Shown here: piece by piece, positions 3,629-9,445 of the stretch
Position numbering within the stretch: the first letter of the stretch is position 1
Layout of the letters: each line of letters begins with the position of its first letter
Assembly (NCBI GenBank): GCA_015055975.1
Contig: SVHF01000005.1
Coordinates: forward strand, 2,676-66,675
Direction: 5' to 3'
Length of the DNA stretch: 64,000 nucleotides
Source of the DNA: Clostridiales bacterium
GTDB lineage: Bacteria; Bacillota; Clostridia; Christensenellales; UBA3700
Translations under genes and position numbers: made by a program
Notes under the pieces: generated by a model
The model's database searches: none
Told to the model about the DNA's origin: nothing
The model's input: only the letters and a program-made list of their open reading frames with translations

Positions 3629-4885
3629 ATGGAAAAGAAACCTTTTGTAACAAAAGAACAAATCGAAGAGATTGTTAAAACTTACCCAACTCCATTCCAC
3701 ATCTATGATGAAAAGGGAATTAGAGAAAACGCAAGAAGATTGAAGAAAGCTTTTTCTTGGAATAAAGGATTCAAAGAATACTTTGCCGTAAAAGCTACAC
3801 CAAACCCATATCTAATGCAAATTTTAAGAGAAGAGGGATGTGGAGTTGATTGCTCATCTTTAACGGAACTTATGCTTTCAGATACAGTTGGATTTTCTGG
3901 AAAAGAAATTATGTTTTCATCAAACGTAACTCCAGAGGCAGATTTTATATTAGCAAGAAAGCTAAACGCAATTATTAACTTCGACGATTTAACTCATATT
4001 GAATTTTTTAAGAAGTTAGCTCCATTTGCAGAAACAATGTGCTGCAGATATAACCCAGGTGGCGACTTTACTTTGAATAATGCAATTATGGATACTCCAA
4101 AAGATGCTAAATATGGTATGACAAAAGATCAAATGAAGCAAGCTTTCAAGAAGATGAAAGAATATGGCGTTAAACATTTCGGTATCCATGCATTTTTAGC
4201 TTCAAACACAACAGATAATGGATATTATCCAAAGCTTGCAAGAATACTATTTAATTTGGCAGTTGAATTAAAGAAAGAATGCGATGTTCATATTGCATTT
4301 ATTAATTTATCTGGTGGTGTTGGTATTGCTTATAGACCAGATCAAAAACCTAACGATATTGATGTTATTGGACAAGGCGTTAAAGAAGCTTATGAAGAAA
4401 TCTTGGTTCCAGAAGGTATGGATGATGTTGCTATCTTTACAGAACTTGGAAGATTTATGCTTGCTCCATATGGACATTTAATTGCAAAAGTTATTCATGA
4501 AAAGCATATCTGGAAAGAATATATTGGGCTTGATGCTTGTGCTGCAAATCTTATGAGACCAGCTATGTACAAGGCATATCACCACATAACAGTTTTAGGA
4601 AAAGAAAACGCTCCAAAAGATCATATCTACGATGTAACTGGTGGTCTTTGTGAAAACAATGATAAATTTGCAATTGATAGAGAATTGCCAAAGATTGATA
4701 TAGGAGACTATGTAGTAATTCATGATGCAGGCGCCCATGGTTTTTCTATGGGATATAACTATAACGGCAAACTAAGATCAGCAGAATTATTATTAAAAGA
4801 AGATGGTTCAGTTAAGCTTATTAGACGTGCTGAAACACCTGCAGATTATTTTGCAACACTAGATTTAACACCATTTAAAAAATAA
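3629..4885 (+). CDS. lysA: Diaminopimelate decarboxylase
   Basis: YPTPFHIYDE, FAVKATPN (PLP lysine), NLSGG, ELGRF, GGLCENND, AGAHGFSMGYNYNG motifs. Confidence 0.93.
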   Translation: MEKKPFVTKEQIEEIVKTYPTPFHIYDEKGIRENARRLKKAFSWNKGFKEYFAVKATPNPYLMQILREEGCGVDCSSLTELMLSDTVGFSGKEIMFSSNVTPEADFILARKLNAIINFDDLTHIEFFKKLAPFAETMCCRYNPGGDFTLNNAIMDTPKDAKYGMTKDQMKQAFKKMKEYGVKHFGIHAFLASNTTDNGYYPKLARILFNLAVELKKECDVHIAFINLSGGVGIAYRPDQKPNDIDVIGQGVKEAYEEILVPEGMDDVAIFTELGRFMLAPYGHLIAKVIHEKHIWKEYIGLDACAANLMRPAMYKAYHHITVLGKENAPKDHIYDVTGGLCENNDKFAIDRELPKIDIGDYVVIHDAGAHGFSMGYNYNGKLRSAELLLKEDGSVKLIRRAETPADYFATLDLTPFKK

Positions 4886-6235: not shown

Positions 6236-7903
6236 TTATGAAAGCATTGCAACAGCAAGCAAGCAATATAAAATTAGTGATAGTGCATCAACAATAGTTG
6301 TTATAAATGGTGATGCTACAACTGCTGGGTCTAGTTTTACTTTCTTTGCTAAAAGTGGCAATGAACATCCAACAAATTTTGCGATGATTACGGTTAAGGC
6401 AAGTGCTAAAGAAACAATAAAGCTTCTAAAGAACGTATAGCCTTCATATCCAAATAGAAGGTTATCTATAAGCATCAATTTTGCAAAGCATGCAATAGCA
6501 AGCGTTACGCCAATTAATATAGATACTCTTATTTCTTTCCACATAACTTTAAATACGTCTTTCGTAGTAAGTTCATTTAAAGCAAGCGAACGAATAACAG
6601 TAACTGATGCTTGAGAGCCTGCATTGCCACCTGTGTCCATAATCATTGGAACGCATGCAAATAAAACTGTTGATATAGCATTTAATCGCGCTTCGAATGT
6701 GTTTATAATAAGGCCAGTGAATGTGGCGCTTATCATTAATACTAAAAGCCATGGGATTCTATTTCTCCAAATCTCAAATACGCTTCTTTTTAAATATGGC
6801 TTATCTGATGCTTGGATACCTGACATCTTAGCGATATCTTCTGAGTTTTCTTCTTTTAAGACGTCCATAGCGTCGTCAACAGTTACGATACCAACTAATC
6901 TTTTTTCATCATCTACAATTGGGATAGCGATAAAGCCATAGTCTGAAATCTTTCTAGCAACATTTTCTTTATCGTCGGTTGTTTGCGCATAGATGACATT
7001 GTCTGTCATGATATCTTTTATTAATGTTTCTTTATCTGCGAGCATTAAATCTTTTGCAGTAACTAAGCCTAAAAGCTTGTTATCTTTATCTACAACATAG
7101 CAGTTGTAGATTGTCTCTTTATTGATAGCATTCTTCTTAATTTTTGCAAAAGCTTTTTCAACTGTCATATCAGGACGAAGATATACATATTCGACGGTCA
7201 TGATAGAGCCAGCTGAATCAGCAGGGTATTTTAGAATTTCATTTACATATTTTCTTGTTTCATCGTCGCTTTGTGCAAGAATTCTTTTTACGATATTAGA
7301 AGGCATTTCTTCTACCAAATCTACCATATCGTCGACGAATAGCTCGTCCATTAAGCTCTTTAATTCAACGTTATTGAACTTTGAAATTAAAAGTTCTTGC
7401 TTATCTGAATCCAATTCAACGAATGTGTCTGCAGCCAAATCTTTTGGCATTAATCTAAACACAAGTGGTAAATCATCATCAGGTAGGTTTGAAACAATAG
7501 CAGCTAAGTCAGTAGGGTTTTCTGCTGCAAGCAATGGTTTTAAAACGGCAAAGTTTCTATTGTTGATTAAAACTTGTATTTCTTCTTCTTCGGCAATCTT
7601 TAAAGCAGTATTTTCTGGAAGATCCTCAATAAGGCCTACAGTTTCTTGAGGAGTCATTTCTTCAAGGACGTTTTCTAGTTCTTCTTCTTTAAGACCATCG
7701 ATTATTCTTTTTTGTAAATCTGTATCTAACTCAAGAATAATGGCTGCTAAAAAATCACTTGGCAATTCTCTACAAAATGGAATTAGTTTATTCTCTTCAA
7801 TTGAAGGGAATATAGTAGCTAAGTCTTTTGGAGAAAACTCTTGTGCAACCTCAACAGCGCTTGAGAATTGTTCATTCTTTAATAAATCTAAAATCTTATT
7901 CAT
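6236..7903 (-). CDS. mgtE: Magnesium transporter MgtE with duplicated N domain
   Basis: MgtE N domain, CBS pair (SAGSIMT, IPIVDDEKRLVGIVTVDD) and TM region with RIPWL, MDTGGNAGSQ, DPAVVASPFITTIVD. Confidence 0.95.
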   Translation of the reverse strand: MNKILDLLKNEQFSSAVEVAQEFSPKDLATIFPSIEENKLIPFCRELPSDFLAAIILELDTDLQKRIIDGLKEEELENVLEEMTPQETVGLIEDLPENTALKIAEEEEIQVLINNRNFAVLKPLLAAENPTDLAAIVSNLPDDDLPLVFRLMPKDLAADTFVELDSDKQELLISKFNNVELKSLMDELFVDDMVDLVEEMPSNIVKRILAQSDDETRKYVNEILKYPADSAGSIMTVEYVYLRPDMTVEKAFAKIKKNAINKETIYNCYVVDKDNKLLGLVTAKDLMLADKETLIKDIMTDNVIYAQTTDDKENVARKISDYGFIAIPIVDDEKRLVGIVTVDDAMDVLKEENSEDIAKMSGIQASDKPYLKRSVFEIWRNRIPWLLVLMISATFTGLIINTFEARLNAISTVLFACVPMIMDTGGNAGSQASVTVIRSLALNELTTKDVFKVMWKEIRVSILIGVTLAIACFAKLMLIDNLLFGYEGYTFFRSFIVSLALALTVIIAKFVGCSLPLLAKKVKLDPAVVASPFITTIVDALSLILYCLLAVAMLS

Positions 7904-7943
7904 TATAAAAATGAGTCGAACTTAAAAATAGAGAGGAATTAAA

Positions 7944-7997
7944 TTAAAAAGGGCGAGCCCTATTAATCATCCCGTTACTACTTCGCGGTTTATCCAT
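7944..7997 (-). CDS. Putative 17-aa leader peptide of mgtE (MDKPRSSNGMINRARPF)
   Basis: Full SD AGGAGGT 7 nt before the ATG, just downstream of a sigma-A promoter; ends 40 nt before the mgtE ATG. Confidence 0.65.
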   Translation of the reverse strand: MDKPRSSNGMINRARPF

Positions 7998-8031
7998 GAC
8001 TCGCACCTCCTATAATTATTTTTTCCCTTAA

Positions 8032-8060
8032 ATATTATTTATTATTTCAGTGTTTGTCAA
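8032..8060 (-). promoter_or_regulatory. Sigma-A promoter for leader-mgtE
   Basis: TTGACA (8060-8055), 17 nt spacer, TAATAT (8037-8032). Confidence 0.7.
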
Positions 8061-8170
8061 ACGCTTGGTTAACTTTTAAGAAAAAAATACAAGATAAAAT
8101 ATGGGGAACTAATATGCGCGTGTATTTTCGCGTAATATATGATACTATTTAATAGATAGAAAATTTAAAA

Positions 8171-9445
8171 GTGGGGATTATTGTGGCTCAAAATAGTATA
8201 TTCAATTTAACGATATGTTTAATGGGAATAATGATATTGACAATTCACGTTGCTAATATTCTGTTCCAAAAAGACATAAGATGGGAAGAAAAAATCCTTT
8301 TATACTTTTTCGTCTTTACAATAATTCACTTTGCAACATATCTAACATTTACGCTTCTAAAAGATTCTCACCAAACAAACGGCTTTATAATGACGTTCTA
8401 TACAATATTCTACATAATAAATAATATTGAAGTTTTATTACTATTTTGGTATGCAAGAAATTACATAAAGCTGGATACGCAGTTGGGAAAGGCGCTATCA
8501 ATTATTAACATTACAATATTTAGCATGTTTGTATTGTTAGACATAATAAACATTTTTACAGGCATTTTCTTCACTGCTCAAGATGGTGTATATCAAAGAA
8601 GCAAGACAATGATAATATCTCAAGGATACCAATTTATCATGTTTGGTATAATCATTGTTATCGCTTTGAAAAATAAGAAATTATATGTTCGTGAAAAGGT
8701 GGCTTTTTGTGTATATTGCATTTTGCCATTAATTGCGATTATTCTACAAAACATATTTAAAGGCTATGCAATAGCATATGCATCAATAATTGTAGCAATT
8801 GAAGTTCTATTCTTATTCTTAAGCGTTCAAAATAGCATTGAACTTGCAAAAGTCGAGGAAAAGAATAAAGATGCAAAAATTAAGCTGATGTTATCTCAAA
8901 TACAGCCACATTTTATGTATAACTCACTTTCTGCTATATCAACTTTAATTACGATTGATCCAGAAAAAGCTCAAGAAGCATTAGATCGTTTTACAGCATA
9001 TCTTAGAGCAAATTTATCTTCTTTATCTGCGGAAAAATTGATTCCATTTGAAGATGAATTGCAACACATCGAAACATATGTGGCTTTAGAGAAGTTAAGA
9101 TTTAATAATAGAATTAATGTTGTTTACGATATACAAACAAAGAACTTTAGCGTGCCACCATTAACGATTCAGCCACTTGTTGAAAATGCAGTAAAGCATG
9201 GTATATTAAAGAAGCTTGAAGGCGGAACAGTAACGATAAGGACGTTAGAAGTTTCGGAAGCGTTTATTGTAGAGATTGTCGATGATGGCGTTGGATTTAA
9301 TATGGCAGATGTAGATTTTAATAGTAATATACATTTTGGGATGAATAACATTAGATATCGTCTAAACACTATGTGTAGAGCCGATGTTGTTATAAATAGC
9401 GAACTTGGAAAAGGAACAAAAATAAGGGTTATCTTATATAAATAG
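8171..9445 (+). CDS. LytS/YehU-type sensor histidine kinase
   Basis: About 7 N-terminal TM; SQIQPHFMYNSL, ELQHIETYVALEKLRF, IQPLVENAVKHG, DDGVGF, HFGMNNI, GKGT. Confidence 0.92.
   Translation: MGIIVAQNSIFNLTICLMGIMILTIHVANILFQKDIRWEEKILLYFFVFTIIHFATYLTFTLLKDSHQTNGFIMTFYTIFYIINNIEVLLLFWYARNYIKLDTQLGKALSIINITIFSMFVLLDIINIFTGIFFTAQDGVYQRSKTMIISQGYQFIMFGIIIVIALKNKKLYVREKVAFCVYCILPLIAIILQNIFKGYAIAYASIIVAIEVLFLFLSVQNSIELAKVEEKNKDAKIKLMLSQIQPHFMYNSLSAISTLITIDPEKAQEALDRFTAYLRANLSSLSAEKLIPFEDELQHIETYVALEKLRFNNRINVVYDIQTKNFSVPPLTIQPLVENAVKHGILKKLEGGTVTIRTLEVSEAFIVEIVDDGVGFNMADVDFNSNIHFGMNNIRYRLNTMCRADVVINSELGKGTKIRVILYK

Follow-up and report, generated by a model that had tools for sequence, protein, structure and literature searches.

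The window, by which we mean the whole 64,000-nt stretch of DNA analysed here, encodes a long-form MgtE on its minus strand. The gene is preceded by a leader with its own promoter, a short open reading frame (the mini-ORF) with its own Shine-Dalgarno (SD) sequence, and RNA segments that can pair in alternative ways. The features are as follows, in the order in which they are transcribed.

8032..8060, minus strand: promoter, TTGACA (8060-8055), 17 nt, TAATAT (8037-8032), with 10 of 12 consensus matches
8004..8011, minus strand: SD1, AGGAGGUG, the ribosome-binding site of the leader ORF, GGAGG at 8010-8006, 8 nt ahead of the ATG
7998..8004, minus strand: e1, GCGAGUC, core GAGUC at 8002-7998, the 5′ partner common to two alternative helices
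7944..7997, minus strand: leader ORF of 17 codons plus stop, MDKPRSSNGMINRARPF, ATG at 7997, TAA at 7946-7944
7977..7985, minus strand: CGA-AGU-AGU (Arg-Ser-Ser), holding the codon pair that is frozen in mgtE and corA leaders
7961-7946, minus strand: AGGG/CUCG/CCCU/UUUU within the end of the leader ORF
7942..7959, minus strand: e2, GGCUCGC (7959-7953), then the anti-SD sequence CCUUUUUAAUU; 3′ arm of the hairpin predicted to lock e1 and SD1 (MFE fold, covariation, RNAalifold)
7930..7938, minus strand: pyrimidine-rich spacer UUCCUCUCU between the leader stop and e3
7913..7917, minus strand: e3, GACUC, the alternative partner of e1, 9 nt ahead of the mgtE ATG, the usual position of an SD
7900..7914, minus strand: small start-codon hairpin of UCAUU (7914-7910, overlapping e3) with AAUGA (7904-7900, holding the mgtE ATG), weak in fold prediction
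6236..7903, minus strand: mgtE, long form, 555 aa, ATG at 7903, with two MgtE_N stretches, a CBS pair and the MgtE channel domain

The original prediction had described a promoter, a perfect SD and a 17-codon ORF whose end overlaps AGGG-CUCG-CCCU-UUUU, and all of these are present in the sequence at the positions listed. About 25 nt of leader separate the promoter from AGGAGGUG, e1 abuts the leader ATG at 7997, and the leader stop lies inside the arm formed by e2 and the anti-SD sequence. The whole leader stretch is single-copy in the genome. The mgtE gene itself has no SD-like run of at least 4 nt between positions -20 and -3, as had been proposed. The mini-ORF and mgtE are in different frames; their ATGs lie 94 nt apart with a stop codon in between. 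Taken alone, the features of the window are statistically not striking and do not go beyond chance: the region contains 8 promoter-like sites against 5.2 expected, and its fold z-score of -0.87 marks an unremarkable energy, which counts against the model proposed below. The features are judged to be real because they are conserved in relatives.

The upstream DNA was read at 44 long-form (~555 aa) mgtE loci from at least eight families of the same order. A short ORF of 17-31 codons with its own SD was found upstream of mgtE at 41 of these loci, all of which also have a promoter, and in the relatives the distance from the TTGACA-type promoter to the leader SD is the same as in the window. The three loci without a mini-ORF (L041, L073 and L076) have a strong SD directly before mgtE. 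Twenty-eight leaders share the layout of the window, GGAGG-N3-e1-AUG, e2, stop, U/C-rich spacer and e3-N9-AUG(mgtE), and are referred to as type A. Within this group the GGAGG of SD1 is invariant (28/28), 24 of 28 leaders have a spacing of 8 nt between the SD and the leader start, the distance from e3 to the mgtE AUG is 9 nt in 21 of 28 (range 8-11), a U/C-rich, G-poor spacer is found in every leader, and all 28 mgtE genes are without an SD. Type-B leaders have a GUG start and encode MKGRSS.., and their mgtE has its own SD, buried in a second hairpin; they fit the same switch scheme. The alignment of upstream regions that had been suggested as a check of the original prediction thus recovers the mini-ORF in 41 of 44 relatives, together with the double-sided changes in both helices that are described below.

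Long-form MgtE occurs in two of the six other genomes of the genus (three of seven including that of the window) and is patchy across many families of the order. An exact-pattern scan of genome contigs for SD-e1..CGAAGUAG..GGCUCG returned only two relatives from the genus and two chance matches, both in G+C-rich coding DNA. A covariance model (R1) run on 400 genomes of the class, with 8 candidates scored per genome, matched only the window's own genome, which is a weak negative; two weak matches from another covariance-model run were rejected as spurious. A protein-alignment search of metagenome contigs gave two loci only, the patterns chosen being unspecific peptide ones. In the window a gene for a LytS-type kinase (8171-9445) stands back to back with the leader-mgtE unit, and in the sister genome G005 (L003, 1160-1330) the unit directly follows a tRNA gene and its terminator. 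Since the neighbours differ between members of the genus, promoter, leader and mgtE travel as one unit, which has either moved or been acquired independently. Ordinary Rfam matches belonging to neighbouring genes were also recorded around some of the loci, namely FMN riboswitches about 1 kb upstream of type-B mgtE (L037, L042 and L044, about 4150-4350, minus strand) and a THF riboswitch near L076 (744-840).

The mini-ORF carries the marks of translation. Its frame is open in 41 of 41 leaders, compared with 12 (29%) and 4 (10%) of 41 for the other two frames over the same spans, and indels between families, such as those of +24 nt and -15 nt in G060, leave it intact. A count over 22 neighbour pairs gives synonymous to non-synonymous codon changes of 40:104 in frame versus 27:110 and 17:121 out of frame, and differences at codon positions 1, 2 and 3 number 65, 50 and 83. 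The leaders L071 and L072 differ at 3 nt, all synonymous, and the residue before the conserved Arg uses all of its synonyms (GGG/GGU/GGA/GGC, UAC/UAU, CCG/CCU/CCC). At the same time, 72% of the codon changes are non-synonymous, so that the peptide is weakly constrained overall; this is counted against the model, and loose constraint on the peptide is usual for regulatory leader peptides. What recurs among the peptides is Asp or Glu as the second residue, in many cases a His, then an acidic cluster with or without Pro, and finally Arg-Ser. Acidic or Pro-containing starts are seen in MDKPRSS.. of the window and in MDxDPRSS, MEYHPSENDS and MKVHLCDGDD of its mgtE and corA relatives, although the peptide of the window genus has lost the acidic stretch of other families, a further point against the model. 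Judged by these patterns, the mini-ORF is evidently a separate, conserved and translated leader ORF. The reading that would have undone the original prediction, namely that MDKPRSS is a broken N-terminus of MgtE, was rejected: the two lie in different frames with a stop between them, and 44 relatives share the MgtE start MNKIL...

The first Arg-Ser of the leader peptide is encoded as CGA-AGU in 50 of 54 leader ORFs, from genomes that range from A+T-rich to moderately G+C-rich, and in the mgtE and corA leader ORFs of this order of Clostridia the pair follows the Asp/Glu/Pro cluster by 1-3 residues. In the genome of the window, CGA makes up 2% of Arg codons and AGA 78%; CGA can be read there only by tRNA-Arg(ACG), through inosine-A wobble, and AGU is read by tRNA-Ser(GCU) through G-U wobble. 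All three Arg codons of the window's mini-ORF are rare in its genome (CGA 2%, AGG 4.3% and CGC 2% of Arg codons). A partner for CGAAGU within the RNA was sought and rejected, as any 6-nt complement occurs in only 18 of 51 leaders, mostly as AUUUUG and at inconsistent places. In one corA leader (L105, of G897) CGAAGU is kept while a 1-nt difference shifts the frame (MDSDPKCQII); this exception is counted against the model and hints that the motif acts at the level of RNA or decoding rather than as Arg-Ser. Our favoured reading, which is a guess, is that CGA-AGU is a programmed slow-decoding site.

The minimum-free-energy fold of the leader pairs AAUUA-AGGAGG-GCGAGUC with GGCUCGC-CCUUUU-UAAUU, so that the whole mini-ORF would lie in a hairpin that buries its own SD. 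The original prediction also held that GCGAGUC can pair either with GGCUCGC or with GACUC, and covariation across the 28 type-A leaders bears out both pairings. For the 7-bp core of e1:e2, 95.9% of cells are paired (slid controls 27-62%) and three pairs have changed on both sides; for the 5 bp of e1:e3, 97.1% of cells are paired (slid controls 14-39%) and two pairs have changed on both sides. No shuffle reached the observed covariation score for either helix, and unguided RNAalifold predicted the e1:e2 helix. Where e1 has G or A in its key column, e2 and e3 both have the matching C or U. This change from G-C to A-U is independent in L039 (family f25, whose other members have G-C or G-U) and in family f36, and L083 (GGGUU/AACUU) shows a change from C-G to U-A. 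As e1:e2 and e1:e3 share e1, the leader has the mutually exclusive helices, supported by covariation, that are expected of translational attenuation by a leader ORF.

Several observations count against the model. The lowest-energy fold shows e1:e2 in only 8 of the 28 leaders, and with a ribosome placed at the stop it contains e1:e3 in 9 of 28. The e1:e3 helix has only 5 bp, and blocking e3 in silico barely altered the predicted openness of the mgtE start (0.37 to 0.38). Start-codon hairpins that overlap e3 are also predicted, weakly, in f25 and f36 leaders: in the genus of the window and in f25 the bases after e3 (UCAU or CCAU) are complementary to the mgtE AUG and the next base (AUGA or AUGG), and in f36 the pairing is between UGAC of e3 and a GUCA that lies at the mgtE start. 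Since the hairpin shares its bases with e3, formation of e1:e3 should open the mgtE start. In addition, four f36 leaders (L049-L050 and L079-L080) have a second UGACUU copy that overlaps the mini-ORF stop and pairs, in the predicted fold, with GAAGUUG of the CGAAGU box; this copy may be an extra layer in that lineage.

The relation to Mg2+ was approached through the M-box, for which a match to the RF00380 covariance model of at least 44 bits was required. A search of 7700-8300 with Rfam 15 at E ≤ 10 found no M-box, no RF01056 Mg_sensor and no other relevant family, and the absence of an M-box from this leader, part of the original prediction, is thereby confirmed. None was found in the whole genome of the window in a search in which control genomes did match, and none at the long-form mgtE loci (44 read, with a covariance-model search of the window and 20 related leaders). 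Of the short-form (~450 aa) mgtE loci of the order, 22 were examined and 15 have an M-box, among them 10 of the 11 closest to the long form (58-63% identical over the shared part), the eleventh being cut by a contig end. By this comparison of loci, the leader is in the place that the M-box holds in sister mgtE genes. The long form, with its extra N-terminal MgtE_N, pairs with the mini-ORF leader at 41 of 44 loci and the short form with the M-box at 15 of 22 (loci L036-L083), and MgtE architecture and regulatory device seem to be inherited together.

Leaders of the same kind were found before corA. Before corA genes of families f25 and f36 there are mini-ORF leaders that have an SD of their own and the same CGAAGU, some of them in genomes without a long-form mgtE; such leaders were counted at about 30 of 34 loci, 28 by script and two by eye. 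The encoded peptides include MDADPRSSQHLR, MDADGRSSQQIQ, MDSDYRSS.., MESDGRSK.. and MDPDEENN.., and MDKPRSS of the window reads plainly as the same kind of start. A mini-ORF common to the genes of two unrelated Mg2+ importers suggests that the signal is Mg2+ itself or something closely tied to it, and this is our strongest argument. The leader is therefore probably tied to Mg2+ as far as its genomic company tells, and we infer that it responds to it.

The corA leaders L094, L095, L099 and L102-L132 (f25 and f36, MD[AS]D[PYG]RS..) contain anti-SD sequences and, downstream, a hairpin that is conserved, ACGCACACG...CGUGGCGU; possible partners of the CCUCGAA in their ORF are UUUGAGG of the same leader and a UUCGAGGG loop. 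The window genome's own corA (G000, contig C11, L101, 1290-1680, minus strand) has a promoter, a short leader and a plain AGGAGGUGA SD. No mini-ORF was found at this gene, and the same holds in genus g390, which has the mgtE leader; thus in the genome of the window and in g390 only one of the two importers, mgtE and corA, carries the switch.

Combined, these observations make the leader very probably a ribosome-coupled control of Mg2+ uptake. In detail we propose, at somewhat better than even confidence, that the locus holds a conserved cis-regulatory mgtE leader made of a translated mini-ORF and four RNA segments, in which a ribosome-coupled switch to e1:e3 opens the mgtE start, with Mg2+ as the likely signal. 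Sequence comparison establishes the building blocks of this proposal, which are the ORF, its translation signature, both helices and the replacement of the M-box. In the resting state, the end of the mini-ORF (e2, GGCUCGC-CCUUUU) would sequester SD1 and e1 (GCGAGUC), and the SD-less mgtE start would be held in the weak hairpin that shares e3 bases (GACUC-AUU with AAUGA). A ribosome on the mini-ORF that occupies e2, or that has stalled before e2, would free e1, which could then pair with e3 and so open the mgtE start. The absence of an SD coincides with the presence of the mini-ORF, which argues that mgtE depends on the leader, either through re-initiation after the leader stop, 26-45 nt upstream, or through SD1 nearby. 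In the window, the ribosome that has finished the mini-ORF, 40 nt upstream, might go on to initiate mgtE; alternatively, a 30S subunit might do so from SD1, which e1:e3 would keep close to the start. Mg2+ could act by making the SD1 hairpin more or less stable, by altering how fast ribosomes move over, or how stably they stay on, the Asp/Pro start and the rare, wobble-read CGA-AGU, or by both, and low Mg2+ would lead to more MgtE synthesis. We infer this direction of the switch, and this way of initiating mgtE, from the arrangement of the parts; single-sequence folding and accessibility calculations do not settle the direction.

A more specific version, which we put forward as a speculation of low probability, makes the ribosome itself the Mg2+ sensor through a programmed decoding checkpoint at the wobble-read CGA-AGU. 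Slow decoding at low Mg2+ would keep a short, acidic peptidyl-tRNA on the ribosome and flip the switch, and e1:e3 would lend SD1 to the SD-less mgtE start as a split ribosome-binding site with fixed distances of 3 nt and 9 nt.

Among the other explanations, the one that survives best reverses the logic of the switch. Reading of the mini-ORF to its end at high Mg2+ would let e1:e3 block mgtE (OFF), and early abortion on the Asp/Pro start at low Mg2+ would let e1:e2 re-form and leave e3 free (ON). Here e3 lies exactly at the required ribosome-binding position, acidic or Pro-rich N-terminal halves are common in leader peptides, the scheme matches the logic of MgtL, and the direction of the Mg2+ response comes out right. 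It would, however, require the SD-less mgtE to initiate alone, yet the lack of an SD coincides with the presence of a mini-ORF, and mgtE has a strong SD at each of the three loci where the mini-ORF is missing, a pattern that points to dependence on the leader. Moreover, e3 overlaps the start-codon hairpin, so that e1:e3 would open rather than close it, and in type-B and corA leaders reading of the mini-ORF should unmask the downstream SD. We regard the reversed switch as possible but unlikely.

The original prediction had taken the element for a leader-peptide attenuator of mgtE. The translated leader ORF and the alternative pairings agree with that view, but its transcriptional side is unsupported, as the U-run after the stem is not conserved outside the genus. 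In an attenuator, the hairpin at the mini-ORF end and its U-run would terminate transcription unless a ribosome on the mini-ORF prevents it. All four sequences of the genus type (window, two genomes of the genus and a metagenome contig) indeed have a G+C-rich core (GGUGCGAGUC/GGCUCGCC) followed at once by CUUUUUA. The small AGGG-CUCG-CCCU-UUUU hairpin, however, is present only in the genome of the window, its relatives having UUGGCUCGCC (G005) or AUGGCUCGUG (G004), and the bases at this place belong, as its 3′ arm, to a larger conserved hairpin, which has a loop of 40-60 nt and buries the leader SD. The other families either lack the U-run or have it at a distance of 2-10 nt from the stem, and it touches the stem only in the window genus. 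A terminator scan called none at the leader, and a conserved G+C-rich short-loop stem with an adjoining U-run, as expected of an intrinsic-terminator attenuator, was not found. Attenuation would also leave e3 and the SD-less mgtE without a role. As relatives do not share the small hairpin, translational control is the probable mechanism. Classical attenuation has, in our view, little chance of being the main one; it could act as an extra layer in the genus of the window.

Still less probable, in our view, is a pure RNA sensor, in which the hairpin and the conserved CGAAGU loop would sense Mg2+ or another ligand and the reading frame would be incidental. The freezing of CGAAGU at the nucleotide level, also where the frame is shifted in L105, and the location of the element where relatives have the M-box speak for it. 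Against it, the SD, the start codon, the 8-nt spacing and the open frame are kept in 41 of 44 mgtE and about 30 of 34 corA leaders through frame-preserving indels, and synonymous variation adjoins the CGAAGU motif. No conserved structure past one helix was found in the leader alignment with RNAalifold, CGAAGU has no RNA partner, and the loop is free to vary in length and sequence. Very improbable, too, is a leader with no relation to Mg2+ that would serve general translational coupling or sense charged tRNA-Arg/tRNA-Ser or polyamines: its rare Arg and Ser codons could report tRNA supply, but in the genomes examined it stands only before mgtE and corA and takes the M-box place of relatives.

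The translational switch that we prefer can be compared with several known systems. The M-box (ykoK, RF00380) has the same place in the 5′ leader of mgtE and presumably the same signal, but it is a 160-nt metal-binding aptamer that acts without translation, whereas the present leader has one hairpin and a translated ORF and gives no match to the M-box model. In one case from M. tuberculosis, an M-box controls a small ORF. The "mgtE motif", a riboswitch candidate reported by Breaker and colleagues, is confined to Thioalkalivibrio and was rejected as the identity of this leader, to which it is unrelated. Leaders of the ermC/cat type likewise consist of a leader ORF with its own SD, where the position of the ribosome decides between stems and opens a downstream start; those sense antibiotics by nascent-peptide arrest and have targets with an SD, and in the present leader the switching partner lies upstream of the leader start codon.

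MgtL, the 17-codon leader ORF of mgtA in Salmonella and E. coli (RF01056 Mg_sensor), is thought to make the ribosome a Mg2+ sensor by way of alternative stems. It controls Rho-dependent transcription termination, and early destabilisation of the ribosome at low Mg2+ turns expression ON. The window shares with it a short leader ORF of 17 codons with Asp, Glu or Pro near its start, ahead of a Mg2+ importer. The differences are that the present leader has no Rfam match, that the peptides are unrelated and that it most probably controls translation initiation. The C/U-rich, G-poor spacer would nevertheless be compatible with a feature of Rho-dependent termination.

In Salmonella, an 8-codon ORF, mgtQ, lies between mgtC and mgtB (Choi et al., mBio 2021, PMC8092293), and it was shown experimentally that translation of this acidic mini-ORF frees the mgtB ribosome-binding site (PMC8092293). 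Both systems have a tiny ORF ahead of a Mg2+ transporter gene and alternative stems that hide or free the start (1:2 and 3:4 in one state, a single cross-pairing in the other). Control is translational in mgtQ and is proposed to be so here, and the Asp/Glu codons of the mgtQ ORF matter (PMC8092293). On comparative evidence, the present leader, with a translated ORF that has its own SD, probably belongs with translational attenuation of the mgtQ or ermC kind. It differs from mgtQ in having no sequence relation to it, in its phylum and in its target, an MgtE channel rather than the P-type MgtB. Furthermore, its cross-pairing is 1:3 and not 2:3, its own SD is part of segment 1, its target gene is without an SD, and its ORF carries the frozen CGA-AGU.

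Control of Mg2+ uptake in Gram-positive bacteria is taught as control by the M-box riboswitch, and to our knowledge leader-peptide sensing of Mg2+ (MgtL, MgtP, mgtQ) is known only from enterobacteria. A full-text literature search found no leader ORF before mgtE or corA in Clostridia. If the proposal is true, ribosome-based Mg2+ sensing would be widespread and would have arisen on unrelated RNA scaffolds, with a mini-ORF switch in many families of gut and rumen Clostridia. It would also improve the annotation of Mg2+ regulons in uncultured anaerobes. The element is compact (~110 nt) and its parts (start codon, e1/e2/e3 and CGA-AGU) can be mutated, so that it would offer a test bed for the effects of Mg2+ on decoding and ribosome stability. 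Control of a Mg2+ transporter by a leader ORF is already known from the systems above; what is apparently undescribed is its occurrence in this phylum and at this transporter, together with the RNA design, the SD-less target and the frozen CGA-AGU.
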